Positions 2,106 to 16,032 of a DNA stretch of 16,032 nt are shown in pieces. Both the position numbers and the translations under genes were made by a program. Source of the stretch: Elusimicrobiota bacterium (GTDB taxonomy: Bacteria > Elusimicrobiota > Elusimicrobia > UBA1565 > UBA9628). Location of the stretch: assembly GCA_027319565.1 (NCBI GenBank), contig DAHVNA010000023.1, forward strand, positions 1 through 16,032, read 5' to 3'. The notes beneath the pieces are model-generated. The model searched no databases and had not been told where the DNA came from. It saw nothing but the letters and a program-made list of their open reading frames with translations. Positions within the stretch are counted from its first letter, which is position 1. Every line of letters begins with the position of its first letter.

Positions 2106-3098
2106 ATGGCCTTCGTTATTAAACAACAAGCCGATCCCTTCAAAAAATATTGGTGGTTGATTCTTTTAGTCTTCGGCTTAGTGGGGCTTTGGGTTTGTTA
2201 CCCCGCCTTTAACTCTTCTTCCAACGCCTCCTTAGCCGGGGCCGAATCGGGCCTTCATCCCGTTAATCAAAGTCTTGATTCCACCCAAAATCCCAATGGG
2301 GCGCCCGGAGGGCCGGTGGATCTGTCCATGAAATCCTTTGAGGCCTATGGAAAAAAGGCGCTAGTTGACCCCTTTGCTTCTCTTCTTTTCTCTCCGCCGC
2401 CTTCGGCTCCCGTGGCGAGCGCGTCTTCATCCAAGAAATCGGGAAAGAAATCTTCCCAGTGGGCAGATGCCTTGGCCAGTTTGGCTTCTCAAGGCCAGTC
2501 CCCAGCCGCCGCAACGGCCGCTCCGGTTTTATCCGCCGCATTTCCTAAGGGAAATTTTTCGAGTCTTTCCGGCCTTAGCGGAAGCGAGAGTTCAAACGCA
2601 TTTGCCCCCGCGGGAGCGGGAAATTCTCCCGGCGGGCTCAGCGGTTTTGGGGCGCATACGCCAAAGATTGGAATTAGTTACGCCCATGGAACTTCAGATT
2701 CGGGTCCGTCTCAAGCCAACGGCGGGGGCGCGATGGGAGCTTTAAAAAATACTGCGGCCCAGATGAAATCGGCGGCTTTGGCTCTCAATGGAACGCAGTC
2801 GAGCGCGCTGGCGGCTCAGGCTTTTGACGGTGGAGCGATAGGCCGCGGGCTTATTAATGATCCTAAGGGAATGTCTTCGGCTGTTGGGATCGGGCAAGGG
2901 ACTCCCATGAATCTCAAAGCCAATGATCCCAATTTAAATCAGTCAAAGCCGAATGCGGTTCCGGCGATGCCCCCGATGATGAATCAGCAGCCGAGCATGA
3001 TGCAGCAGATCATGCAGATGCTGATGATGGCGGTTGTCGGTGGGCTTGCCGGCGGAGTTGTCAAGGGAGTTTTGGGGGCCATTGGGTTAGCCGCTTGA
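2106..3098 (+). CDS. Hypothetical Ala/Gly/Ser-rich membrane protein with N-terminal TM and C-terminal glycine-zipper helix
   Basis: KKYWWLILLVFGLVGLWVCYP TM, long low-complexity region, M/Q-rich tract, C-terminal AVVGGLAGGVVKGVLGAIGLAA. A strong promoter lies directly upstream. Confidence 0.8.
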   Translation: MAFVIKQQADPFKKYWWLILLVFGLVGLWVCYPAFNSSSNASLAGAESGLHPVNQSLDSTQNPNGAPGGPVDLSMKSFEAYGKKALVDPFASLLFSPPPSAPVASASSSKKSGKKSSQWADALASLASQGQSPAAATAAPVLSAAFPKGNFSSLSGLSGSESSNAFAPAGAGNSPGGLSGFGAHTPKIGISYAHGTSDSGPSQANGGGAMGALKNTAAQMKSAALALNGTQSSALAAQAFDGGAIGRGLINDPKGMSSAVGIGQGTPMNLKANDPNLNQSKPNAVPAMPPMMNQQPSMMQQIMQMLMMAVVGGLAGGVVKGVLGAIGLAA

Positions 3099-3114
3099 TT
3101 TGAGAGGTATTTTT

Positions 3115-4581
3115 ATGGAAACAAAACAAAACGGTCCTAAAATTAACAAAGGTGAAAAAACGGGACTGGCTGGAATTCTCAGCGCCTTGGGCTGGAACGC
3201 AGCGGAGGGAGAAGCTGTCTCCGGCGGTTTGGGGGGAATGATTGACGCGGCAACCTCTGGCGGGCTTTTGGCGACCAAGGCCGGAATCGTGGGACTTGTT
3301 TTGGCGGGAACGACTGTGGCCGGAGGCGTGGGTTGGCTGGGATACAAAGTTTTGGGCCCCGGGCCTGGAGACAAGGCGCATGCCCATTTTCAGGTTTTTC
3401 AACCAAGGCCGGCGCAATCCGCTTCGGGACAATCTCAAGGTGGCGGCAATTCTCCAAACTCCGGTCAGTCTTCCTTGGGAGATCTTAGTCAGGCCAATCA
3501 AGGGGCGATGGGAGAAGCGGCCGCTTCATTAAACTCTGCTCCGGCTGCTTCCGCGGCCATTGGGGCCGCCCCCAAATCTCCCAATGTCGGTAAGGTTTTT
3601 GGCGGTAAAGCTTCTAAGGTGATGCCGAAATTAGCCGGAGCCGCTAAAATCGGTCAACTTTCTAATCTCAACGCCGCGGGTCCCGCCGCGGCCGCGAAAC
3701 CCGCCGCGGCAAAACCCATGGCGGTGGGGGCGCTGCCCGGTGGCGCTGGAGCGGGAGCTCCGCATGGCGCGGTGGCGGGACGGGGATTTGGCGGATCATC
3801 GGGTGGCGGCGGCGGTGGTTTTCGAGCGATGAACGGCGCTGGAACGGGTTATGGCGGACTTGGTCCCAACAATGTTCCTGGAAATGCTCTTTTCGATGGG
3901 ACTCATGCCTCTGGTATCGGTACCCCTAGCGGTTCTGGGTTGGGAGGAGTAGGAAGCGGAGCTCCCACCCAGTTTCCAGCCGCGTCCAGTTACGGCGGTC
4001 AATTTTCTCCTCAAGGCGGGAACCAAATGCCCTACACTGGCAACGGCACGGACGTGACCCCTTGGCAGGGCGCGATCAATCTGGCGATCATGCTGTCTCT
4101 TTTGGCTGGTGCGCTTATGTATGCGGCTTTCGCATTGTCGAAGTCACAAACTCTGAGCGTTGGTACTCTCAAGGCGATTTTGGCAGTTCTTGGAGTTGTT
4201 ATTGCCGCAGTTGGAGGATTTATCGCCTATCTTGGCAGCCAAATTGCGGGAGGGCAATTCGGCCAATCATTCCAGGGCGGAGCCTTTACCTTGGCGGGAA
4301 CATTTATCGCCATGTCTGGTATGGCTATTGCGGCAGGGGGGGCTGCAGGGGATTTTACTAAGGCAGGTTTTGGTGGTACGACGTCTATGGTTTTCATGGC
4401 TTGTGGGGCCGTGGGATTATTGAGCGCCATGGCGGGCTATCTTGTTCCCGGTCAGCAGTATCCTTCGACGATGTTCTACGGGAACCCTCCTGACTGGACC
4501 AACCCTAATGCCCAGGTCAACCCCAATCCCTATCAATACAATCCCTACTATGGTGGCTCTAGTATGGGAGGTATCCCGTAA
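3115..4581 (+). CDS. Hypothetical Gly/Ala-rich membrane protein with about 4 C-terminal hydrophobic helices
   Basis: ATG 3115 preceded by GAGG (3104-3107) is preferred over TTG 3100. Gly-rich hydrophobic N-terminal segment, low-complexity linker, hydrophobic bundle after VTPWQ, and an N/P/Y-rich tail. Confidence 0.8.
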   Translation: METKQNGPKINKGEKTGLAGILSALGWNAAEGEAVSGGLGGMIDAATSGGLLATKAGIVGLVLAGTTVAGGVGWLGYKVLGPGPGDKAHAHFQVFQPRPAQSASGQSQGGGNSPNSGQSSLGDLSQANQGAMGEAAASLNSAPAASAAIGAAPKSPNVGKVFGGKASKVMPKLAGAAKIGQLSNLNAAGPAAAAKPAAAKPMAVGALPGGAGAGAPHGAVAGRGFGGSSGGGGGGFRAMNGAGTGYGGLGPNNVPGNALFDGTHASGIGTPSGSGLGGVGSGAPTQFPAASSYGGQFSPQGGNQMPYTGNGTDVTPWQGAINLAIMLSLLAGALMYAAFALSKSQTLSVGTLKAILAVLGVVIAAVGGFIAYLGSQIAGGQFGQSFQGGAFTLAGTFIAMSGMAIAAGGAAGDFTKAGFGGTTSMVFMACGAVGLLSAMAGYLVPGQQYPSTMFYGNPPDWTNPNAQVNPNPYQYNPYYGGSSMGGIP

Positions 4582-4607: not shown

Positions 4608-4635
4608 TTGACAAAGTCAGTATTTCTGTTACACT
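4608..4635 (+). promoter_or_regulatory. Sigma70 promoter driving a ~200-nt structured leader
   Basis: TTGACA (4608-4613)-N16-TACACT (4630-4635), with extended -10 TG at 4627-4628. Confidence 0.8.
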
Positions 4636-4838: not shown

Positions 4839-6452
4839 ATGGCCCAAGCTAAGGCGAGAGGCCTGTCGTTTTATAGACAGGCGCGTATTGCCGCAGGGAG
4901 AATTCTCTCTGCGGGGTTTCTTGTTTTCTTTTCCGTGCCCGCCTTTTCCCAACTCCTCTCTCAAAGCGCGATTGGAGGTCTCCCTGGGAATTTTCTTCTC
5001 TACGGCGTTGGCGCGAAGGCCTTGGCCATGGGCGGAGCTTTCTACGGCTTGTCTAATGACGCGACCGCGGGCAACTGGAACCCGGCGGGACTCGCGCAGC
5101 TTCAGAGAAAGCAATTGACCTTTATGGACGGAGCCTTGCCCCAGCAGACAAGCCTTGATTATCTCGCCTATGCACAGCCGCTTAAAGGCGGCAGCACTTT
5201 TGCCGGGTCTTTTACGAAACTTTCCGCCGGCGGATTTCAAAATGAGACCGCCACCTACAATCCACAGGGAACTCTGACCGGACTGACCTCCGAGGGCTCT
5301 TTTACCAATGCGCAACAAGCCATTAGCTTTTCCTGGGCGAAAAGCCTGACCAAGACGACCTCTTTTGGCGCGACGGTTCAGGAAGTTTCAAACAGCTTGG
5401 CCGGATACTCGAGCAACACCCAAGCCCTTAACATCGGAATGCTCAAGACCTTCGGGTTCTATCATCTGGGATTAGGCGTTCAAAACGCTTTTTCAAGAAC
5501 CGCCGGCGCGACCAGCGATCAATATCCGGTCATCGTCAGAATGGGAAACGCCATCGAACTTTTCCATGATCGCCTGATTTTGGATATGGATTTAAATAAG
5601 CCCTTGACCCCGGGGCTTGACGTCAATTTCGGCGGAGAGTATCATCTTTCTCAATGGTTCGCGTTTCGCTTTGGTCTCATGGGAATTCCTCAAATTCAGG
5701 AAACCGATTTCGGATTCGGACTGGATTTCCAAACTTTCCAGGTGGATGTTGCCGAGGGAATTGGAAACCTTGGGACCAGCACAAAAATCTCTCTAGGGTT
5801 TAAGTTTGGCGAGAGTAAAACCGCCAACACTAATGCCAAGGTCAAAGCGGTTTTAAAATCCGCCTTTGAGGCTCTTCAGGAGGGAAATTTCACCTTGGCC
5901 CAGGCCCGCTTTAAAGAAGCTCTTTATATCCAGCCGGGAAATAACAAAATTCAGCAAATGATTGATCGTCTTAAAACTGTCACCGATCATGTGCCCCAAG
6001 CGACCGGAGGGGAGGAGTTTCAGACCTTTGTGCGCAAAGGCGCGGTCCTGTTTGTTGACGGCAATGACTTGCGGGGATCCGTCAACGCCTTGAGATACGC
6101 TTACAACAAAAATCCAAAAGACGAGAAATTGCTGCTTCTTTTAAACGCGGTTGAGAAGGCGGCCCATGTCACCGAGCTGACTCGCCGGGTTGGAGGGCCG
6201 GAGCAGTTTACCTGGGTGGATCAAAAAGTGTATGACGCCCGGCAGTCGGTCTATGAGGGACACTATGACGCCGCGATAAGGCGGGCGCAAGACGTTTTGG
6301 ATTTGGAACCCAATAACGTGACCGCCCTTGAGATTCTTGGCAGCGCGTTTTATCTGATGGACCAAAAACAAAAAGCGATCGCGGTCTGGAAAAGAGTTTT
6401 AGAGCTTGATCCGCATAATAAAGAAGTTCGCCAGTTCATGCAGGCAAAATAA
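4839..6452 (+). CDS. PorV/PorQ (UPF0164, FadL-like) family outer-membrane beta-barrel with C-terminal TPR domains
   Basis: Signal-peptide-like FLVFFSVPAFS|Q; family motif GVGAKALAMGGAFYGLSNDATAGNWNPAGLA; amphipathic strands ending ISLGFKFG (~5810); TPRs (AFEALQEGNF...ALYIQPGN; LDLEPNN...AIAVWKRVLELDPHN). Confidence 0.8.
   Translation: MAQAKARGLSFYRQARIAAGRILSAGFLVFFSVPAFSQLLSQSAIGGLPGNFLLYGVGAKALAMGGAFYGLSNDATAGNWNPAGLAQLQRKQLTFMDGALPQQTSLDYLAYAQPLKGGSTFAGSFTKLSAGGFQNETATYNPQGTLTGLTSEGSFTNAQQAISFSWAKSLTKTTSFGATVQEVSNSLAGYSSNTQALNIGMLKTFGFYHLGLGVQNAFSRTAGATSDQYPVIVRMGNAIELFHDRLILDMDLNKPLTPGLDVNFGGEYHLSQWFAFRFGLMGIPQIQETDFGFGLDFQTFQVDVAEGIGNLGTSTKISLGFKFGESKTANTNAKVKAVLKSAFEALQEGNFTLAQARFKEALYIQPGNNKIQQMIDRLKTVTDHVPQATGGEEFQTFVRKGAVLFVDGNDLRGSVNALRYAYNKNPKDEKLLLLLNAVEKAAHVTELTRRVGGPEQFTWVDQKVYDARQSVYEGHYDAAIRRAQDVLDLEPNNVTALEILGSAFYLMDQKQKAIAVWKRVLELDPHNKEVRQFMQAK
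4891..4932 (+). terminator. Terminator-like hairpin inside the first codons of the barrel gene (candidate riboswitch expression platform)
   Basis: CCGCAGGGAG-AATT-CTCTCTGCGG (10 bp, one G-U pair), then GG and TTTCTTGTTTTCTTTT. The U-richness could simply reflect Phe/Leu/Val codons of the signal peptide. Confidence 0.4.
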
Positions 6453-6473
6453 GATATGGAACATTTTAAAGAC

Positions 6474-6502
6474 TTGAAAATGTCATCAGGAGTGCCTACA
6501 CT
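6474..6502 (+). promoter_or_regulatory. Internal sigma70 promoter upstream of the motor genes
   Basis: TTGAAA (6474-6479)-N17-TACACT (6497-6502), the same -10 hexamer as at 2094 and 4630. Confidence 0.7.
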
Positions 6503-6542
6503 TATGTCGAAGGCTCAAGGAACCTATTTTAACGCTTCTCAA

Positions 6543-8507
6543 ATGAAAAAAATCGCCTTTCTCCTGATTTTTATTGTCGCGGCGGTCAAAGCGCTTCAAG
6601 CCGCTCCGCTAGTCGCGCCCGATATTGACCTTCTGAAAGAGCAGAATCAAATTAAGTTGGAGTCGGAAAAAAAGATTCAAGATGAAATTCTCGATCCCAT
6701 CCTGGGGCCGGGAGAAGCCGTCGCTTTTGTCGATGTAGAAATGTCGGTCAAGGTCGAAAGCGAAAGACTCAAGAGAAAGGGGGTGGGCGAGGCGCAGAAA
6801 TACCACCAGAAAAATAACAATGACAACAGCGCCAACATGAACACGAATTTCGTCATGCCCGGAATTCCTAAGCCGACGGCCATTACCGCGGGCGGCCCCA
6901 AAACTCCGCCCAATTCCGCTTCCGCCCAAGCCGCTCAGGAGTCTAAGGGAATTCAACAAGAGACCTATGCCGTAAACCCTATTTTTAAGAAGCTGACGGT
7001 GACCGTCATTCATGACCAAAATGTGCTCAAAGATAAAAATCAGATAGAGATGGTTCGCAGCCGCATTGTCGACGCGATGGGGCAATATCATCTGGCGCCG
7101 GAAAATATTTTCTTTCGGGCCACGCCTTTTGCCCATATCAAGAATGATTGGAAGGAAGATCTTAAAAAACCTTCCGTCTATTTGCCGCTTCTCTACGCTT
7201 TTCTTTTGCTCCTTCTCTTGTCCTTTTTATTCGGGCCGTTGCGGAAGTTTTTAAAAGCTTATATTCAGGCCTTGATGGAAAAGCCGCAATCAGAGGTTGA
7301 GGTGACAGGAGAAGAGGGTGGAGGAGACGATGAAAACGACGGAGAAGATGACAATGCCTTAAGTCAGGAAGGGAAATTGGACATTAATTTTACGAGAAAG
7401 CCCGATGAACCCCCGCCCCCGCCGGTGGATGAGGAGGATGAAATGAAAAAATTCGAGCCGTTCGCTTATATTAACGACGAAAACGTTAAACGCTTGGCCT
7501 ATATGTTTATTCTAAGGAAAGAAGAACCCTGGGTCGTTGCGGTCGTGGCCAGCTATCTCAAGCCCGATTTAGCCCGGCAGCTCTTGACTTCTCTTCCGGT
7601 TGATTTGCAGGCCAAGGTCGCTCTTGAGGCCTTGACTGTCCGGCAAGTGACTCGGGACCAGGTGATCGCGATAGACGGGGATGTGAAGGAAAACGTGGAT
7701 TTTGTGGTCGGCGGAATTGAGCGCTTGGTCGTGTTGCTCGATGAATCTGATTCCGCGACTCGCGCCAATATTTTAAATTACCTCAAAAATGAGAAGCCGC
7801 TGGTTTACGAGGCGGTCAGAAAGCATATTCTTATTTTTGAGGATATCGCTTCTTTCCCGGATCGCGATATGCAGACGATTGTTCGCGAATTAAAGACCGA
7901 TTTGATGGCGCGGGCGCTCACCGGAGCCCCGCCCGAGGTTCTCAATAAGTTTCTCAGCAGCATGTCGGCGGGAGCGGCGAGCTTGCTTAAGGAAACAATG
8001 GAATATACCCAGGGGCTCAACCCAAATCAAATCGAGGATGAGAGAACAAAGGTTATGGATTTAATTAAAGCTCTTGAGAAAGACGGGAAAATCTCCGTTC
8101 GCAAGCAAGGACAACAAGGGTATGACATGGTGGAAGGAATGCAGGAAGAATTAAGCGCCATGGAAAGACGCCAGAAAAGATTTCAAAGTGCCAGACAGAA
8201 AAATCAACCGGAGACTCCCTCTATTTCCGCCGATCCGGCCAAGGCGCAGGCCTACTTTGACGCCGCGGTTTCGCAGTATCAGGCGGGGCAGGCGGACGCC
8301 GCAGTTTCGTATTTTGAAGCGGCTTTAACTCTCAATCCTTCTCTTTGGCAGGCCCATCAATATTTAGGGACGCTGCTCTATCAAAAGGGAGACGTTCAAG
8401 GGGCTCTAGCCCATTATGAAAAGGTTTTGGAAATAAATCCGGACCCCCAACTAAAAGTTTGGGTGGACGGCTTTAAATCACAGGTAGGAGGAAACCTCAA
8501 TGGCTGA
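6543..8507 (+). CDS. FliF C-terminal ring domain (RBM3)-TM-FliG middle/C-terminal-TPR fusion protein
   Basis: Start placed at ATG 6543 (signal peptide MKKIAFLLIFIVAAVKALQA, downstream of the internal promoter). FliF_C-like: ESEKKIQDEILDPILGPGEAVAFVDVEM...FKKLTVTVIHD...RIVDAMG. TM: LPLLYAFLLLLLLSFLFGPL. FliG-M: EEPWVVAVVASYL...LP. FliG-C: GGIERL...IFEDI...DRDMQTIVRE...ALTGA...KFLSSMS...ALEKDGKI. C-terminal TPRs. Confidence 0.85.
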   Translation: MKKIAFLLIFIVAAVKALQAAPLVAPDIDLLKEQNQIKLESEKKIQDEILDPILGPGEAVAFVDVEMSVKVESERLKRKGVGEAQKYHQKNNNDNSANMNTNFVMPGIPKPTAITAGGPKTPPNSASAQAAQESKGIQQETYAVNPIFKKLTVTVIHDQNVLKDKNQIEMVRSRIVDAMGQYHLAPENIFFRATPFAHIKNDWKEDLKKPSVYLPLLYAFLLLLLLSFLFGPLRKFLKAYIQALMEKPQSEVEVTGEEGGGDDENDGEDDNALSQEGKLDINFTRKPDEPPPPPVDEEDEMKKFEPFAYINDENVKRLAYMFILRKEEPWVVAVVASYLKPDLARQLLTSLPVDLQAKVALEALTVRQVTRDQVIAIDGDVKENVDFVVGGIERLVVLLDESDSATRANILNYLKNEKPLVYEAVRKHILIFEDIASFPDRDMQTIVRELKTDLMARALTGAPPEVLNKFLSSMSAGAASLLKETMEYTQGLNPNQIEDERTKVMDLIKALEKDGKISVRKQGQQGYDMVEGMQEELSAMERRQKRFQSARQKNQPETPSISADPAKAQAYFDAAVSQYQAGQADAAVSYFEAALTLNPSLWQAHQYLGTLLYQKGDVQGALAHYEKVLEINPDPQLKVWVDGFKSQVGGNLNG

Positions 8508-11184
8508 AGAAAATAAAGATCCTAGGAATTTCCCGCCGCCTTTGCCGGGCTCCCCCATGGATCCCGGCGCGGCGCAGAGAGACGCTTCTTTTCCGGGCCT
8601 TCCGCCTTTTTTGCCGCCGGATGCATTGCAGCCGTCTAAATCCCTTCCGCCCCTGCCCGGTCTTCCCCCAGCTAAAAATGCGTCTTTGCCTGGGCTTCCG
8701 CCCCTTCCATCTTTGCCGATGGCAAGACCAAACCCAAGCTCTCAGGCCGCTCCTCAAGAACAGGTGAATATCGAGAAAAAAATATCGGAATTAGAGAAAA
8801 AGCTTCAAGAGGAACGAGAAAAGGTCTTGATGGCGCAGCTTAAAAATCAGCAGGAAGCCGTGACTTCCGCCAAGGTCGAATCCTCGCTTAAGGAACTCCA
8901 GGAGAAAATTAGGCGAGAAAGGCGAGATCAGGAAACCGAAGAATCCCGCCTGCGCCTTGAAAATAAACTCCGAGAAATGGAGGCGCGTTTGGCGCAAGAG
9001 AGGGAGACCTGGGTTTCGACCCTTAAATCTCAAATGCAGTCCCGCGAATCTCAGGATAAAGATATCGAGACTCAGTTTGTGGGCCGCATCCAGGAGATGG
9101 AAAAGCGCTGGATGGAAGAGAAAATGCAATGGCAGAAAGCTTTGTCCGCTAAAGAAGAGGAAGCGCGCAATTGGCGGATGGTGGCTGAAAAATTAAGGGC
9201 TTCTGAAATCGAGCTAGGCAAAGTCTTAATTGAGAAAAAATCCACTGAAGAGAAAATCAAGGAAATTGAAAAGAAAAATCTGGAATTGGAAAATAAATAC
9301 GACTTTTCCAACGGCAATCTAGTCGAGAGGGAAAAAGAATTAGCCCAAATTAAAGCCGAGCTTACTCTTGAGCGGGAAACCGCTAAGAGGGAAATCGAGA
9401 ATTTGGGGAAATCGCTTAAGGCCCAAGAGGAAAGAGAAAAGCATCTTCTCGGCGAGATGGAAATTCTCAAAAAAGAATTCCTGCTAAAAACTGAAGCCAT
9501 TGTCCGCGAGAAAGACGACAAAATAAAAGAAATCACTCGCGATAAAGATATCGGCCTTGAACGCCTTCAGGCTTCTTATGAAAAACAGATAGGAGCGATC
9601 AAAAATTCTCTTAAAGAGGCGGAAGAAAAATACGCGGCCAGTCTTGAGAAAATGCGTTTGGAAAAGAAAGCGGAAATTCAATCTCTTAAAGACGGCTTTC
9701 AAAAAGAGTTGGAAGCCGCTTTGAAATCGGAAAAGGAAAAAGAAAAGCGGTTGCAGGATGAAATTTCCCGCCTCAAAGAAGAGATGAGTGAAGTGGAATC
9801 GCGGGCCTCTGAGAAAAAAGAAAAAGCTCTTGGTGATCTTAGAGTGCAATTTCAGGAAAAAATTCTCGATTTGGGCGCTCAATCTAAAAAACGAGAAAAT
9901 GAGCTTGATTTTGAAATTCAGAGGCTAAAAAGCGAGTTGGAGCGTGCCAACGAGCCCTTTCTTCAAGCTAAAGCAGAACATGAAACTGAAATTCAAAAAC
10001 TTAAAGCCGCGTTCCGCATGGAATTAGATGCCGTTCGGTCCGAGAATTCCCTAAGAGAAGCCAAATTGCTGTCTGAAAATTCAGTCTTGAAGACAAATCT
10101 ATCCGCAATTGAGTCCATCAAGGCGCGTATGGAAGAGGAATTATTGCGGTTGCAAAATGAGCGCGATCGGACGATCGAACAATCCGAGGCAAAGTTGCGG
10201 GATGAAATTGCGCGTCTTCAGGCGGGTTTTAGGCTCCAAATAGAAGCCTTTAGAGAATCCAACCAATCTAAAGAAGAGAAGCTTAAGGCCGATATTTCAG
10301 CCCTAAGAAAAGAGAAAGAAGAGATAATTGAGGAATATCAGTCTCAGCACGAGTTAGAATTGAGGAATAGACGTTTGGAAATAGAGACGGAGATTAGACG
10401 CTATCAGGAGAAAGCCGAGCGCGAGAAGAAAGAGGAAGTTGAAAGATCGGTTGCTTCTAGGGTGTTTGCCATCGCTAAAGAGATTGAGGAGAAAACTCGG
10501 AAAGAAAAAGAAAGGGAATTCGGGAGCTTAAGACTCGCGGCGGCGCTGGAACAAAAAAAACATCAAGAGAAAGAAAAGCAATATCAGCAAGACCTCTCTG
10601 AGTATCAGAATCGGCTGCTTGAACTAGAGAAAAAAATAAAAGAGCTTACAGATAGAGAGGATGCCTACAAAAAACAGATGACGGATGTGAAAATTCAAAT
10701 GGCTTCAGCGCAGGCGGAAAAAATAAGCGCGGCTAAAAGAGAAGAACGTCTTCACGCAGCTTTGGCGGTCGTGCGCGGCAAGTGGGAAAAAGAACTAGAG
10801 GCGCAGGTCCTCAAGAAAACGGAAGAAATCCTTGGAATTGAGAAGACTCGTCTTCAAGCGCGGTTCCAACAGGAGGTCGAGCAGAAAGTGGAAGAGATCC
10901 TCCAAAACCGTCGGCTTAAAATGGAACAGGAAATGAGGCTAGAAAAAGACAAAATAGTGGAAGAACAGCGGAGAAAGATAGAAAACGAAATTGCTAGACT
11001 CAAGGAAGAATCTCGGAAGGAACGGGCAGATTTGGAAGAGGCTGTGGCGGCTTATTTGGAAATGAAAAGCAGGAAGGAAGAGGCCGAAAGGCTTTGCTCG
11101 GCTCAGGGGGCACAGCTTGCTTTTGTTAGAAAAGAGGTGGAAAATCTTCAGCAGCAGGTGCGCCAGAGGCTCGCCAAAAAATAG
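8500..11184 (+). CDS. Large Glu/Lys-rich coiled-coil protein with proline-rich N-terminus
   Basis: SD AGGAGG at 8486-8491; 8-nt overlap with the upstream gene; about 800 aa of heptad-like sequence. No Walker motif, TM or signal peptide seen. Confidence 0.88.
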   Translation: MAEENKDPRNFPPPLPGSPMDPGAAQRDASFPGLPPFLPPDALQPSKSLPPLPGLPPAKNASLPGLPPLPSLPMARPNPSSQAAPQEQVNIEKKISELEKKLQEEREKVLMAQLKNQQEAVTSAKVESSLKELQEKIRRERRDQETEESRLRLENKLREMEARLAQERETWVSTLKSQMQSRESQDKDIETQFVGRIQEMEKRWMEEKMQWQKALSAKEEEARNWRMVAEKLRASEIELGKVLIEKKSTEEKIKEIEKKNLELENKYDFSNGNLVEREKELAQIKAELTLERETAKREIENLGKSLKAQEEREKHLLGEMEILKKEFLLKTEAIVREKDDKIKEITRDKDIGLERLQASYEKQIGAIKNSLKEAEEKYAASLEKMRLEKKAEIQSLKDGFQKELEAALKSEKEKEKRLQDEISRLKEEMSEVESRASEKKEKALGDLRVQFQEKILDLGAQSKKRENELDFEIQRLKSELERANEPFLQAKAEHETEIQKLKAAFRMELDAVRSENSLREAKLLSENSVLKTNLSAIESIKARMEEELLRLQNERDRTIEQSEAKLRDEIARLQAGFRLQIEAFRESNQSKEEKLKADISALRKEKEEIIEEYQSQHELELRNRRLEIETEIRRYQEKAEREKKEEVERSVASRVFAIAKEIEEKTRKEKEREFGSLRLAAALEQKKHQEKEKQYQQDLSEYQNRLLELEKKIKELTDREDAYKKQMTDVKIQMASAQAEKISAAKREERLHAALAVVRGKWEKELEAQVLKKTEEILGIEKTRLQARFQQEVEQKVEEILQNRRLKMEQEMRLEKDKIVEEQRRKIENEIARLKEESRKERADLEEAVAAYLEMKSRKEEAERLCSAQGAQLAFVRKEVENLQQQVRQRLAKK
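8530..8718 (+). repeat. Imperfect proline-rich peptide repeats (LPGLPP)
   Basis: FPPPLPGSP, ASFPGLPPFLPP, SLPPLPGLPP, ASLPGLPPLPSLP. Confidence 0.75.
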
Positions 11185-11196
11185 AGGGTTAAATTA

Positions 11197-11427
11197 GTGA
11201 TCTCAGTCCACAAACTTAATGGTCAAGAGGTTTTTATCAATGCGGAATTGATTGAATGTCTTGAGAAAGGACAAGAGACAATCGTTTGTCTTGCCACTGG
11301 CAATCGCTTTTTGGTTAAGGAAAATGTGGAGGAAGTCGTTCAAAAAGTGATTGACTATCGTAAGAAGGTCAATTCGGATTCCAAAGTCGCCAACCCGATC
11401 GCGGGTTTTGAGAGAAAGAATCCTTAA
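11197..11427 (+). CDS. flbD: FlbD/SwrD family protein
   Basis: MI-x-V-x-KLNG-x-x-x-x-INAELIE...ETIV-x-L-x-TG-x-x-FLVKE-x-x-EEV-x-x-KVIDYRKK fits the FlbD consensus; it lies directly upstream of motA as is usual. Confidence 0.92.
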   Translation: MISVHKLNGQEVFINAELIECLEKGQETIVCLATGNRFLVKENVEEVVQKVIDYRKKVNSDSKVANPIAGFERKNP

Positions 11428-11439
11428 GGAGATAAATCG

Positions 11440-12222
11440 ATGGATATAGCGACGGTGCTGGGAATACTGGTTTTCTTGGGGTTGGCCGTCATAACGATTT
11501 TCTTGTCGGAAGGCTGGGTTGGATTTAAGCCTTTCTTTAACATGGAAGCTTTTTTGATGGTCATGGGGGGAACTTTTTGCGCGACCTTGGTCAATTACCC
11601 GCTTTCCCAGGTGGTCGGTCTTGGGCGCATTGTCCGCAAGGTCTTGTTTTCCGCGCCCGAGGATACTCCCGATATCGTGGCGACCTTTGTCAGCCTTTCC
11701 CAGAAGGCTAAAAAAGAAGGATTTTTAGCCCTTCAAGCCGATGTGAAATCCATTCAAAATGATTTCCTGCGCCGGGCGATTCAATTGGTTATTGACGGCG
11801 CGGATCAGGAGTTTATCCGCAATATGTTAGAAACGGAAATCGGCTTTATTCGGGAAAGGCATAAAGTGGGACAGGAAATTTTCAACGCGATGGGGACCTA
11901 TGCGCCGGCTTTTGGAATTATCGGCACGGTTTTGGGAATGATTTTGATGTTGTCGACAATCGAAGATGTCACCCAAGTGCCCCGGCGTATGGCGGTCGCC
12001 TTGGCTTCGGCTTATTTCGGCCTGGGCTCGGGCTATCTTATTTTTCTTCCGATGGGCGGAAAATTGCGCCGGAGATCTGAAGAAGAGCTTCTGGTCAAGG
12101 AAATCATTATCCGCGGAGTTCTCCTCCTTCAAAGCGGCGCGACCCCGAGCGTGGTTGAGGCCAATTTAAAGGCTTATCTTGAGCCGGCCAAACGCGGGGC
12201 CATCAAAACCCAGACTGCTTAA
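11440..12222 (+). CDS. motA: Stator A subunit (MotA/PomA family)
   Basis: MD-x-AT-x-LG, V-x-GGT, AKKEGFLAL, FL-x-x-x-x-QLVIDG, APAFGIIGTVLG, MAVAL, FLPMGGKL; SD AAGGAG at 11426-11431. Confidence 0.95.
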   Translation: MDIATVLGILVFLGLAVITIFLSEGWVGFKPFFNMEAFLMVMGGTFCATLVNYPLSQVVGLGRIVRKVLFSAPEDTPDIVATFVSLSQKAKKEGFLALQADVKSIQNDFLRRAIQLVIDGADQEFIRNMLETEIGFIRERHKVGQEIFNAMGTYAPAFGIIGTVLGMILMLSTIEDVTQVPRRMAVALASAYFGLGSGYLIFLPMGGKLRRRSEEELLVKEIIIRGVLLLQSGATPSVVEANLKAYLEPAKRGAIKTQTA

Positions 12223-12228
12223 ATTTTT

Positions 12229-12966
12229 ATGCCTCTCAAACCGCCAAAAGGTTTTATCGACGAATCCGATCCCAAGGTGGCCCAGATCGGCCATCCGGCC
12301 CCGCCATGGCTGGTCAATTATGCGGACCTCATGACCGAGATTGCCTGTTTTTTTATCATTCTCTATGCCCTTTCGACTTCTTTAAATAAACAGGTTCAAC
12401 AGGCGGTCGAGGATGTTCAAAAGATGGTGAATACCAAACAGATTAGCGGCACGGTTGCAGTCGACCGTGAGGGATTAAAAATTACGCTCAACGAAGAAGG
12501 CCATGTTTCTTTCTTTAAAAGCGGAGAGGCGGACACCACCCCTGCCATGGATGCGATGATCGCCAAACTCGTGCCGACCCTTCGGAAATTGGCCGTAGAT
12601 CACGATATTATCGTTGAAGGCCATACCGACAACCGTAAAATCTCCAACCAATATTTCGACTCGAACTGGGAACTCTCGACGGCGCGGGCGACGATGGTCG
12701 TCAGGCTTCTTAAAAATAAATACGGGCTTCCGCCGAATCGTTTGGGCGCTTTAGGATACGGCCAATATCGCCCGATTGCCTCGAACAATACCCCCGAGGG
12801 CCGCGCGGAAAACCGTCGTGTCGTTTTTTGGGTTAAGAATCTTTCTCCCTCGGACAAGAAAATTGTTTCGGGTTCCGGAGGGGCAAAAGCCAAGGCTTTG
12901 ACTGCCCATCCCCCAGCGTCCGTGCCTGAGAAAAAAGAGAATCAGCCGAATATAAAAGGGCTATAA
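12229..12966 (+). CDS. motB: Stator B subunit (MotB family) with OmpA-like peptidoglycan-binding domain
   Basis: TM WLVNYADLMT...FFIILYA with the conserved Asp; EGHTDN, SNWELSTARA, GYGQYRP, NRRV. Confidence 0.95.
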   Translation: MPLKPPKGFIDESDPKVAQIGHPAPPWLVNYADLMTEIACFFIILYALSTSLNKQVQQAVEDVQKMVNTKQISGTVAVDREGLKITLNEEGHVSFFKSGEADTTPAMDAMIAKLVPTLRKLAVDHDIIVEGHTDNRKISNQYFDSNWELSTARATMVVRLLKNKYGLPPNRLGALGYGQYRPIASNNTPEGRAENRRVVFWVKNLSPSDKKIVSGSGGAKAKALTAHPPASVPEKKENQPNIKGL

Positions 12967-14561
12967 TGAGTTTAATGTTGGATTTAAAAAAGACATTGTG
13001 TCTGTTGGGCTTGGGATTTACTTTTGCGTGCGCCACTCTTCCCAAGGGCGTTCCAACGCCTTTGCCTTTAAAGCCTCTTCCCGTCGCGTTTCAAGCGCCT
13101 CCTTTGTTTAGCCGCGCGGATCTTAACGCTTTTTCTTGGAAGGCCCCCGTGGGACGCCCACCTTTTCCACACCTCAGGTTAACGCTGCTTCCCACTCAAA
13201 ATTCTCAAAACTCCGAAATTTTTGTTGCCCAGATTCTTAAGTGGCTTTCCAATCACGAGGGGCCTTTAAGCGGCGAGATGTCTCCGGGAACGGTTTTCTC
13301 TCAGGTTCAAGAACTTTTTAAGGACAATTTCGAGGCGGCCTCTCAAGATTTAGAGGGCGCGGATATCCAAACCGATGTGGACTGGTCTCTCGCTCTCCCG
13401 GTTTTAGAAGGTCGCTATGAGCAAAATAAAATTGAGATGAATCTTGCGGTTGCCTTCATGACGCCGGAGGGCAAACAAATTGAAGCCATTAAAGTTCACT
13501 CCTCTGAATCAATGGGCGCGAAAGATTGTTCCCGATATGTGAGTCTTGCCCATGAAGAAGGTTTTCCCGCTTCTCAAACCCAGTGTTTTGAAAGAGGGTT
13601 TCTTGTGGCTTTAAGCGATTTGTTGGGGCGTTTAGAGTCTTCTCTGATTCATTCAAAAGCCTTAGGGCTTTACCAATCACAGCTGGTCTCCCATCAGGCG
13701 GCAGAAGAGCCCATCCCGCCCAATGTCTTTAATTCTCAAAAGACGGCAGAGGCTTTGAAGCCTTCCGCGGCATCTTCCCATTCTCTTCACTCGGATGTGG
13801 ATTCTCCGACCTATGCTTTGAGCGCCGCGCGAGACAATTACGCGGTGGTGGTGGGCATCCAGAAATATGAGAATGTCGCGAACGCTGAGTTCGCCGTCAA
13901 TGACGCGCGGGCGATGAGGCGCCATTTATTGGCCTTGGGCTTTCCCGAGCAAAATATCGCTTTTTTAACCGACAGCCAAGCGACCAAAAGCGGGATTGAT
14001 AAGTATGTGGCCAGTTGGCTGCCCAATCATTCTTCCAAGCAGTCTAAAATATTTTTTTACTTTTCCGGACATGGGGCTAACGATCCAGTATCTCACCAGG
14101 CGTATTTGGTGCCTTGGGACGGGGACCCCGCATTTTTGAGCGCCACCGGATATTCCATCGCCCATTTATACCGGCAAATCAATAAAATTAAGGCGGGGCG
14201 CTTAATCGTCGTTTTAGATTCCTGCTTTTCAGGGCAAGGACCGCGCTCGGTGATGGCCAAGGGGCTTCGCCCCTTAGTAGAAAAAGTGGATATGGGACCG
14301 GCGAGTTTGGGAAAAATCGCCGGGTTAGCCGCCGCGGGCCCCGAGCAAGTGGAGGGCGTCATCCCGGAGGAAGGGCACGGAATTTTGACCTACTACCTTT
14401 TAAAGGGGCTTAACCGCTCTCAAGGCCTTGGCAAACTGAACGAAATTTATCATTATATGGAACCGCGAGTAGAAGATGTCGCGCGCAGCGAGGGGAGAGT
14501 TCAGACCCCTCAACTCATGGGGAAAAACACCCTGATTACGTTAGGAGGCATTTTAAAATGA
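12966..14561 (+). CDS. Lipoprotein with C-terminal caspase-like (peptidase C14) domain
   Basis: Lipobox-like TFA|C; YAVVVGIQKY; catalytic His in FYFSGHG and Cys in LDSCFSG; HGILTYYLLKGL; QTPQ. TAATG overlap with motB. Confidence 0.88.
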   Translation: MSLMLDLKKTLCLLGLGFTFACATLPKGVPTPLPLKPLPVAFQAPPLFSRADLNAFSWKAPVGRPPFPHLRLTLLPTQNSQNSEIFVAQILKWLSNHEGPLSGEMSPGTVFSQVQELFKDNFEAASQDLEGADIQTDVDWSLALPVLEGRYEQNKIEMNLAVAFMTPEGKQIEAIKVHSSESMGAKDCSRYVSLAHEEGFPASQTQCFERGFLVALSDLLGRLESSLIHSKALGLYQSQLVSHQAAEEPIPPNVFNSQKTAEALKPSAASSHSLHSDVDSPTYALSAARDNYAVVVGIQKYENVANAEFAVNDARAMRRHLLALGFPEQNIAFLTDSQATKSGIDKYVASWLPNHSSKQSKIFFYFSGHGANDPVSHQAYLVPWDGDPAFLSATGYSIAHLYRQINKIKAGRLIVVLDSCFSGQGPRSVMAKGLRPLVEKVDMGPASLGKIAGLAAAGPEQVEGVIPEEGHGILTYYLLKGLNRSQGLGKLNEIYHYMEPRVEDVARSEGRVQTPQLMGKNTLITLGGILK

Positions 14562-14716
14562 AAACTTTAATTCTGGTTTTTGCCGGCGCCGCCGGTGTCG
14601 TGGCTTTCGCTTTCGGTTGCGCTCCTAAAACGGGCAATTATCATATGGTTCATTCAGATTCAAAGAACGCTCAGCAGGATCTCAATCAGGCGATTTTAAA
14701 CCATCCGCTCCAATGA
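14558..14716 (+). CDS. Small 52-aa lipoprotein (not in the ORF track)
   Basis: SD AGGAGG at 14543-14548; ATGA overlap with the upstream stop; MKTLILVFAGAAGVVAFAFG|CAPKTGNYHMVHSDSKNAQQDLNQAILNHPLQ; fills the intergenic gap. Confidence 0.85.
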   Translation: MKTLILVFAGAAGVVAFAFGCAPKTGNYHMVHSDSKNAQQDLNQAILNHPLQ

Positions 14717-14735
14717 AGGGAGTTTCTTTAAAAAT

Positions 14736-15734
14736 ATGAGAAAATTTCTTTGGTCCGCGGCCGCTCTAAGTTTTATCTTGGCATGCCACGCGACGAAAAC
14801 TCCTAATTATGCCGCGATTAAAGCCGATGCGGCCAAGGCCGAGGCGGAATTGCCGTCCGGCTCATCTAATAATATCAAGGGTTCTTCTCAAACCGATTCT
14901 TCTTCCGGAAACGGAAGTTCTAACGTAGTTGATGATTCTCTCAACGCAAAAATTACCGGCCGCAGCAAGCGGATGAAATGCACCTGGGTTGAGTCCCAAG
15001 GGGTGGCCGATGTCACTAACTCGATGAGCCCGGAACAGGCAAAGGCGATGGCGATATCGGAAGCTCGCCGCATGGCTCTTGAAAAGGTTTTGGGGGTGCG
15101 CGTTCGCGCCCGCGATTTAGTCTTTCAGCAGTCCGGCTTGGAAGGCAATGACAGCATGATTCAGAGCCTGGTCCAGACCATGAGACAAGGAAGAATTATT
15201 GACGAAAAGGTGGGCAAAAACGGTTATGTTGCATCTTCCCAATGTCCCTATTGCCGCTATCAAGCCGAAGTTTCCGACTGCGTCAAGCCCTTTCCGCGAA
15301 AATCCGATCAGAATTTTTGGGTTCGCATTAATCTTTCCAAACAGCATCTGGTGAGCGGAGAATCAGAACAGGTGAATGTTTCGGCCTCCACGCGCTGTTA
15401 CGTCTATCTCTACGACCAGGCGATGGACGGCTCTCTTTCCCTGATTGTCCCCAATGACTATGTTTCTCATCTCAAGGTAGGGCCCAATAGCCCGCTCATT
15501 TATCCCGATCCCAATAAAGCGGAAGAAGAAGGCTTGGCCTTGGTCGCCGAAATTCCTTCAGGGCAAAAAATGTCGGCTGAGACCATTTCGGTCATCGCCT
15601 CAAAAGAACCTTTGCCCAAGTCTTTTTACGAAGTTCGCAAGGACGACGACTATTTTTCCCTTCTTAAACGCTTAAACGCTTCCCGCTATGACTGGACTGA
15701 TGACGCCGAACCCTATTTTATTTACGCCCACTGA
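14736..15734 (+). CDS. Lipoprotein with FlgT_N/LPP20-like domain and DUF4384-like C-terminal domain
   Basis: Lipobox ILA|C; Ser-rich linker; WVESQGVA...EQAKAMAISEARRMALEKVLGVRV (FlgT_N/LPP20-like); GE-x-x-x-VNVSASTRCYVYLY...DGSLSLIVPN (DUF4384-like). Confidence 0.75.
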   Translation: MRKFLWSAAALSFILACHATKTPNYAAIKADAAKAEAELPSGSSNNIKGSSQTDSSSGNGSSNVVDDSLNAKITGRSKRMKCTWVESQGVADVTNSMSPEQAKAMAISEARRMALEKVLGVRVRARDLVFQQSGLEGNDSMIQSLVQTMRQGRIIDEKVGKNGYVASSQCPYCRYQAEVSDCVKPFPRKSDQNFWVRINLSKQHLVSGESEQVNVSASTRCYVYLYDQAMDGSLSLIVPNDYVSHLKVGPNSPLIYPDPNKAEEEGLALVAEIPSGQKMSAETISVIASKEPLPKSFYEVRKDDDYFSLLKRLNASRYDWTDDAEPYFIYAH

Positions 15735-16032
15735 GAAGCCCGCTTCGCTGCGTGTTTATACCGATGGCGCCTGTTCCGGCAATCCCGGTCCCGGAGGCTG
15801 GGCCGCCGTTATTGCCGAAAAAGATTCGATTCGATGGGAAATAGGCGGTTTTGAAGCGCACACGACTAATAACCGGATGGAGATCTTGGCGGCTATAGAG
15901 GCTTTAAAATTTCTTCAAGATTGGCCTGTCGCTTCAATTGAGATATTGACGGACTCGAAATATCTTTTGGGGGGAGCCGAGTCTTGGATGAAGAACTGGA
16001 AGCGAAAGGGCTGGAAGACCGCTCAAGGCTCT
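15700..16032 (+). CDS. rnhA: Ribonuclease HI, 3'-truncated by the window edge
   Basis: VYTDGACSGNPGPGGWAA, TTNNRMEI-x-AAIEAL, TDSKY, W-x-x-NWKRKGWKT. Start is ATG 15700 or 15688, overlapping the upstream gene. Confidence 0.93.
   Translation, partial: MTPNPILFTPTEKPASLRVYTDGACSGNPGPGGWAAVIAEKDSIRWEIGGFEAHTTNNRMEILAAIEALKFLQDWPVASIEILTDSKYLLGGAESWMKNWKRKGWKTAQGS

Follow-up and report, generated by a model that had tools for sequence, protein, structure and literature searches.

To our knowledge, FliG rings turned by MotAB are found only in flagella, in which a full-length FliF (two membrane helices, RBM1–3) is accompanied by a separate FliG protein with a FliG_N domain. Other envelope machines share parts of this equipment. 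Agl–Glt of Myxococcus combines a MotAB-family motor with tetratricopeptide repeat (TPR) proteins, outer-membrane barrels, a cytoplasmic coiled coil and a surface adhesin, as does the locus described here, and has no FliG or FliF-type ring. The rings of SpoIIIAG and of the injectisome proteins SctJ/PrgK likewise place the RBM fold outside the flagellum, and they have neither a FliG torque domain nor a stator. Here, we analyzed the first 16 kb of contig C27 from an Elusimicrobiota genome (G000; 2.03 Mb, 91.65% complete), a 16,032-nucleotide stretch referred to as the window, and found a core of six genes behind a cyclic di-GMP (c-di-GMP)-I riboswitch, encoding a barrel–TPR protein, a FliF(RBM3)–FliG fusion, a coiled coil, FlbD/SwrD, MotA and MotB. 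This operon is neither a flagellum nor a canonical type IX secretion system (T9SS); it falls outside the flagellar family, although it resembles the flagellar rotor–stator core. We consider it very probable that it encodes a working non-flagellar rotor–stator machine.

Genes of this kind have been noticed before. In its available text, one study reported motAB, flbD and fliG of enigmatic role in free-living, flagellum-free Elusimicrobiota, called FlbD a transcription activator and left open how flagellum-free, magnetosome-bearing Elusimicrobiota move (10.1101/2022.07.08.499144). Those orphan genes are almost certainly the same as the ones described here; the same partial text describes no FliF–FliG fusion, operon, barrel (PorV has 0 occurrences), coiled coil or riboswitch. 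Rotor genes were also reported from 11% of non-motile species in the accessible part of another paper, in which an alternative function was asked about (PMC12199754). The one FliF–FliG fusion met in print was, in the portion available, engineered, full-length and flagellar (PMC10941966). Elusimicrobiota are unmentioned in the available parts of PMC12505986, PMC13277936 and PMC13740483. A full-text literature search, which covers few subscription papers and so leaves absence from print unproven, found no description of the fusion or the operon.

The rotor gene (6456..8507, + strand) encodes 683 amino acids (aa), with a probable start at Met30 (position 6543); close relatives, at 653–654 aa, lack the first 29 residues. 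The protein comprises, in order, a signal peptide, a FliF RBM3/collar domain, one membrane helix (residues 239–263), an acidic linker, the middle and C-terminal domains of FliG and, last, a TPR; it matched FliG_M (E-value (E) 4e-9), FliG_C (E 7e-24) and TPR. With the flagellar motor core, the operon shares the RBM3/collar fold, the FliG middle and C-terminal domains, MotA, the plug, Asp and OmpA domain of MotB, and the flbD–motA–motB order. It differs from the flagellum in that the rotor is one polypeptide with a signal peptide, a single membrane helix and an added TPR, lacking the first membrane helix, RBM1 and RBM2 of FliF as well as FliG_N, and in that a PorV-like barrel and a coiled coil are linked to it; no FliM/N, export gate, rod or filament was found here. 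An earlier note on this DNA, made from the sequence alone, had described a FliF-like ring fused to FliG. The fusion stands, whereas the FliF part amounts to only one ring domain and one membrane helix.

Assignment of the periplasmic FliF-RBM3-like ring domain (6615..7151, + strand), which carries a conserved PG motif, was supported at several levels. The FliF part of the window rotor alone gave a weak match (E 0.023), and YscJ_FliF_C matched at E ≤ 0.1 in 34 of the 47 rotor family members. When a ring-domain profile was compared with PDB, FliF (E 1.4e-5) and SpoIIIAG (5wc3, E 7.5e-4) ranked first. With the structural model of the domain, the top 18 Foldseek rows were all FliF RBM3/collar, and VIA likewise placed FliF first (Z 11.9, root-mean-square deviation 2.1, 97 aligned), with Z values of 8.6–9.3 for the SpoIIIAG and SctJ/PrgK rings. 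The collar is shortened relative to that of FliF and is modelled with low confidence, residues 67–99 having a predicted local distance difference test (pLDDT) value below 50. Among the best 150 database representatives, 72 were at least 400 aa long with RBM3 at the N-terminus, and 69 of these 72 also carry FliG domains, which indicates that the FliF–FliG fusion is a trait of the family.

The FliG middle and C-terminal domains (7455..8114, + strand) are conserved at several positions, as one would anticipate if they still contact MotA. All 40 of 40 orthologues keep both the hinge of two Gly residues and the Asp288 equivalent (Glu513), and the F-E/D-D motif is near-invariant. The EHPQ motif, which serves FliM binding in FliG, reads EEPW here, with loss of the His.

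Downstream in the operon lies the stator cassette, consisting of a 76-aa FlbD/SwrD family protein (11197..11427, + strand; Pfam PF06289, 72.7 bits), a 260-aa MotA of the flagellar, PomA/MotP-like type (11440..12222, + strand) and a 245-aa MotB with a plug, the ion-binding Asp33 and an OmpA-like peptidoglycan-binding domain (12229..12966, + strand). Of 25 aligned MotB rows, 24 carry Asp33; the remaining one is a fragment cut at the edge of its locus. A basic residue is kept at the MotA Arg90 position. According to the available text of PMC12505986, ExbBD, TolQR and AglRQS form a group whose B subunit is without the flagellar plug and OmpA domain and whose A subunit has a condensed cytoplasmic domain. 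The operon's MotB has both MotB_plug and OmpA, and its MotA aligns with flagellar stators over its full length. The FlbD–MotAB stator proposed in the earlier note is thereby borne out. In a tree of 35 MotA rows, unrooted, without a true outgroup and with long branches, the operon clade (support 100/98) grouped with MotA of a flgE-linked flagellar locus (99/96), which suggests a flagellar origin of the stator cassette and the direction of that origin. Of 22 operon MotAs, 16 have Gln and 6 have Glu at the position of Glu98. Co-loss of MotA Glu98 and FliG Arg281 as a diagnostic charge pair was considered and rejected: Gln also occupies this position in three of the four flagellar MotAs from the phylum, while Arg is retained in the three flagellar FliGs seen, and Glu is still present in those 6 operon MotAs.

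The first gene of the core (4839..6452, + strand) encodes a 537-aa protein in which a PorV/FadL-type outer-membrane barrel (about residues 47–323) is followed by a C-terminal TPR. It matched PorV_fam with 88.7 bits, just below the cut-off of 90, and also matched TPR. The model (pLDDT 81) shows a plugged barrel and then TPR helices; in a structure search, its best matches were the T9SS PorV chains 8gl6_F and 6h3i_F, with FadL channels just behind, in agreement with the PorV-like barrel that had been proposed. The TPR is predicted to be periplasmic because the barrel ends before it begins. Complex prediction for the barrel–TPR protein with a single copy of the ring domain gave a score of 0.21 (mark 0.32). 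A second barrel–TPR gene with 98% protein and about 92% DNA identity to that of the window lies on a 1.6-kb contig of G000 (C80:1-1622) and is probably a co-assembled strain or a recent duplicate.

The coiled-coil gene (8500..11184, + strand) encodes 894 aa with a Pro-rich N-terminus and a conserved block at about residues 90–230. It had no family match and no Atlas match at or above 0.9. The protein is predicted to be cytoplasmic because it has neither a signal peptide nor a membrane helix, and no hydrophobic segment was found in 35 orthologues; a reading of it as an envelope-spanning shaft is therefore not supported. In more distant families (L056–L067, L075), a second, larger coiled coil of 1,170–1,850 aa, often ending in TPR, separates the rotor from the window-type coiled coil. 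One genome of a motor-less family retains a homologue of the coiled-coil core (G054:C14:74979-75335; E 3.8e-20).

Conservation of the operon was then assessed in 54 loci, of which 47 have a window-type orthologue, or 44 after removal of three duplicates. In 41 of 44 loci the barrel gene immediately precedes that of the rotor (the rest being two contig edges and one moved gene), and the coiled-coil gene follows the rotor in 42, five of them assigned by inspection, so the prediction of conserved linkage in related genomes holds. The pair flbD–motA comes after the coiled coil in 24 of 44 loci and is cut off in 4. Of the 41 genomes with a full-length barrel orthologue, 40 also have a full-length rotor orthologue, and the converse count is likewise 40 of 41. 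The ratio of nonsynonymous to synonymous substitution rates (dN/dS) was 0–0.15 for all six core genes against two relatives. Together, these comparisons indicate that the operon is conserved and under selection. Taxon-assigned relatives of the rotor gene (10 of 14 loci) were all Elusimicrobia. As had been stated from the letters alone, nine open reading frames (ORFs) on the + strand are tightly packed in the window, with overlaps at 8500–8507, 12966 and 14558–14561.

The operon also proved to be independent of the flagellum. In G000, the FlhA, FliP, flagellin, rod and FliM/N families all gave 0 matches, with positive controls, and no further flagellar gene was found among the window ORFs. Among 151 Elusimicrobiota genomes, FlhA and FliM/N were present in the same 4, and MotA in 58. 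A FliG-type match at E ≤ 1.2e-16, a count that leaves out weaker, mostly TPR matches and in which related genomes are not independent observations, was found in 55 of the 151, together with MotA in 54, and 52 of these 54 are without FlhA. One genome with a full flagellum (G062) has its own separate fliF, fliG and motAB besides two fusion loci. Neither this genome nor G000 thus holds a full flagellar set that relies on these genes, in line with the earlier note. Carrier genomes have 1–4 copies of MotA. In two families, f4 and f12 (89 mostly small genomes), MotA was found in 0 of 89; their small genomes and a remark on symbionts in the available text of 10.1101/2022.07.08.499144 suggest that they are host-associated. 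A lead to a range beyond Elusimicrobiota comes from look-alike Atlas clusters (scores 0.90–0.92), whose commonest phyla include Bdellovibrionota and Cloacimonadota.

The riboswitch expected from the earlier note, a c-di-GMP-I aptamer with a long insertion (Rfam RF01051; 4708..4834, + strand), matched with 42.3 bits against a gathering threshold of 35. Among the matches listed, it precedes the barrel gene in at least 26 of 31 orthologous loci; four of the other five may have theirs among 24 unlisted matches, and one genome has no match. A sigma-70-type promoter-like site with an extended −10 (4608..4635, + strand; 10 of 12 positions by consensus match only) lies upstream, and both hexamers are unchanged in four of four aligned close relatives. 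Within the leader codons of the barrel gene, a terminator-like hairpin with a T-rich tail (4891..4914, + strand; 10 pairs, 7 of them G-C) is a candidate expression platform of the riboswitch, and its stem is kept in four of four close relatives.

Several observations connect the operon with surface proteins. Its resemblance to the T9SS and gliding machinery of Bacteroidota lies in a PorV-fold barrel, a SprA-like gene, tagged cargo that often has its own barrel gene, and a 5:2 ion motor beside a ring. The single 1,918-aa SprA-like protein of G000 (C20:15445-21458; L088 7446-13202, − strand) gave partial TIGR04189 matches (E 1.3e-15) far below the cut-off and had no match to PDB sequences. SprA-like genes, likewise below the family cut-off, occur in 141 of 151 genomes, which suggests a phylum-wide T9SS-like translocon without a Gld motor found. 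Type A C-terminal tags are present in 105 of 151 genomes, with five TIGR04183 matches among the 5–7 tagged proteins of G000, and in many orthologous loci the gene just 5′ of the barrel gene encodes a tagged protein of about 1,600–2,200 aa. The operon differs from T9SS in that its motor and ring are MotAB and FliF–FliG rather than GldLM and GldKN: GldM was found in 0 of 41 genomes and GldL and GldN gave 0 matches in G000, searches in which no control genome was positive and GldK was not looked for. At loci L101, L107, L110, L114, L115, L132, L136 and L138, each tagged cargo gene has a PorV-like barrel gene of its own after it, a pairing that recalls the dedicated carriers of type B T9SS cargo, yet the tags look like type A.

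Riboswitches of the same class point in the same direction. Of the three in G000, one stands before the motor operon, one before the SprA-like gene and one before a large operon for secreted proteins. Sharing of the riboswitch by the motor and the SprA-like gene was rejected as a general rule, being seen in 2, perhaps 3 genomes among the matches listed. Among the listed riboswitches that had not yet been assigned to a motor operon, we followed up the 40 with the highest scores, and in 14 a tagged or PorV-like gene was among the first four genes downstream: 2 stand before additional barrel–TPR genes, 8 before the gene of a tagged protein that is paired with a PorV-like gene, and 3 before other PorV-like genes, and 1 has a tagged gene in fourth place. 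Ten others are followed by an ORF that reaches 1,200 aa or more. Pilin-like genes, recognized by eye and in 1 case with a weak Pfam match, come after 4, a PilT-like gene comes after 1, and the remaining 11 fell in no class. The c-di-GMP riboswitch regulon, as reconstructed from these neighbourhoods, is surface-oriented.

We propose a mechanism that would account for this set of genes. The fusion protein would form a membrane ring through its periplasmic RBM3 and cytoplasmic FliG domains, and peptidoglycan-bound MotAB, with ion conduction at Asp33, would turn it. Because FliM and FliN are lacking, there would be no CheY switch and the ring would turn one way only. The periplasmic collar would hand force to the TPR of the PorV-like barrel, which would hold a T9SS-type tagged surface protein; this step is modelled on the SprF–SprB carrier of Flavobacterium, where, in the available text, a dedicated carrier barrel connects the adhesin to a motor-driven track (PMC12635249). 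The coiled coil would position the motors from the cytoplasm, and c-di-GMP would set expression of the operon together with other surface genes. That the operon forms a stand-alone, ion-driven envelope ring motor that moves or pulls surface adhesins, in gliding-like motility or powered attachment, is the reading we favour and has in our estimate slightly less than an even chance. We hold equally tentatively that a one-gene, MotAB-turned ring rotor powers a T9SS-like adhesin system in Elusimicrobiota, possibly also in Bdellovibrionota and other phyla.

A number of observations weigh against this proposal. The equivalents of FliG Arg281 and Arg297 are lost in 40 of 40 orthologues; these are torque residues in E. 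coli, and such charges are not critical in Vibrio, according to the part of 10.1101/2021.01.07.425829 available. Both threonines of MotA TM4 are lost in 21 of 22 operon MotAs, and because of these two losses stator–rotor coupling and ion use may be altered. FlbD–MotAB, which the earlier note had counted as a linked part, follows the coiled coil in the 24 loci given above, and in 16 of 44 it lies elsewhere, apart from the rotor genes. The window's operon has no upstream tagged adhesin gene, and there is no conserved cysteine for a Flavobacterium-type disulfide link, a further difference from T9SS. The link between riboswitch and surface genes is not specific to the motor, since genome G110 has nine riboswitches and no MotA match. 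Four PilT genes in G000 mean that twitching could explain surface motility without the motor. Ring assembly, rotation and motility are what we infer from sequence and models; of the proposed use of a flagellum-derived rotor–stator pair outside the flagellum, independence and linkage hold, while rotation and a driven output keep this provisional status.

Some of the same evidence could be read differently. The motor might energize T9SS-like export in place of GldLM and GldKN, ejecting carrier and cargo from the SprA-like translocon, as would suit the breadth of SprA-like genes and tags, the PorV-like barrel in the operon, the c-di-GMP-I riboswitch that also precedes the SprA-like gene in G000, and the GldL, GldM and GldN searches that found nothing. 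However, those searches lacked a positive control, and the SprA-like riboswitch is confined to the few genomes noted above. Moreover, in the MotA-less families f4 and f12 the SprA-like gene is retained (44 of 45 and 35 of 44), as are tagged proteins in f12 (35 of 44), and the presence of several paralogous motors in a genome is easier to reconcile with dedicated cargo than with a single shared translocon. We regard a role in export as unlikely.

A second copy of the operon in G000 bears on another reading. At C33:12695-28839 (L089), a 2,777-aa tagged protein, a barrel–TPR protein, a kinase/rotor frame, a coiled coil, MotA and, at the contig end, MotB are encoded; its rotor paralogue and the window fusion are the only two FliG_C matches in the genome. 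In this copy, a histidine kinase shares one reading frame with the rotor paralogue, with a signal-peptide-like stretch between them, and the frame may represent two genes without an intervening stop. Stator mechanosensing occurs in flagellated bacteria, and a ring tethered through the barrel to a surface protein could report surface contact by stator engagement under load, as the kinase frame and the c-di-GMP control of the operon might suggest. The available text of PMC13740483 ties FlbD/SwrD to high-load torque in Bacillus, which also counts for such a sensor. The window operon, however, contains no kinase or signalling gene, and none was recognized in the orthologous loci, where only window homologues were labelled; we consider a load sensor quite improbable.

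We give a similarly low standing to a fixed scaffold ring, in which MotAB would act in the manner of ExbBD/TolQR for outer-membrane upkeep, FadL-like uptake or cell shaping with a coiled-coil cytoskeleton. The RBM rings of SpoIIIAG and injectisomes are static, the ring-domain profile matched SpoIIIAG (5wc3), FadL channels came just behind PorV, and the loss of the FliG Arg281 and Arg297 equivalents also speaks for such a ring. Against this stand the plug and OmpA domain, which place MotA and MotB with the flagellar rather than the ExbBD/TolQR type, and the near-invariance of the FliG hinge, F-E/D-D motif and Asp288 equivalent.

A service to type IV or Tad pili, which the motor would rotate or position, was raised as a possibility in the available text of 10.1101/2022.07.08.499144 and seems more doubtful still. 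G000 has four full-length PilT genes (C36, C41, C45, C67) and several PilB/PulE-like ATPases, besides one chemoreceptor and four GGDEF matches, and pilin-like and PilT-like genes follow five of the 40 riboswitches. The window operon, however, contains no pilus gene, and symbiotic lineages keep pilus genes, according to the same partial text, while two large families are without the motor. Finally, a decaying flagellar remnant, or the only fliF, fliG and motAB of an unassembled flagellar system, which the incomplete genome and the flagellar origin of the stator cassette might recall, is scarcely credible given the phylum-wide conservation, 1–4 copies, low dN/dS, the full flagellar set alongside in G062 and the absence of FlhA from 52 of 54 carriers.

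The genes that flank the core are adjacent to it and not part of it. After motB come a 531-aa caspase (C14)-family lipoprotein (12966..14561, + strand), a 52-aa lipoprotein-like ORF whose lipobox was judged by eye (14558..14716, + strand) and a 332-aa lipoprotein with FlgT_N-like and DUF4384 domains (14736..15734, + strand). The three had been taken for machine parts, and we rejected them as core because, of the 21 loci whose sequence extends past motB, only 3 have them at this place, and those 3 are very close relatives. The C14 protein belongs to a large, scattered family, is one of 6 matches in G000 and is matched over its full length only within its own genus; envelope proteins of the caspase (C14) family are greatly expanded in this bacterial family, with up to 31 matches per genome. 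An RNase H-like gene, recognized by eye, shares 47 bases with the last lipoprotein gene and continues past the end of the window (15688–16032). At 2106–4581, 5′ of the riboswitch, are two Gly/Ala-rich membrane proteins without a known family, which were also rejected as core parts, being at this place only in the closest relatives.

The operon offers a concrete candidate answer on the orphan rotor genes of Elusimicrobiota: six genes, which supply a single rotor polypeptide, a stator and a defined partner in the outer membrane. If the proposed motor is real, the flagellar rotor–stator pair would power a second type of machine, and this machine would provide a mechanism of surface motility or traction distinct from flagella, pili, and Gld or Agl–Glt gliding. 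T9SS-like surface display would then extend well past Bacteroidota. For motor mechanics and evolution, the fusion would supply a natural minimal rotor model that needs no filament.

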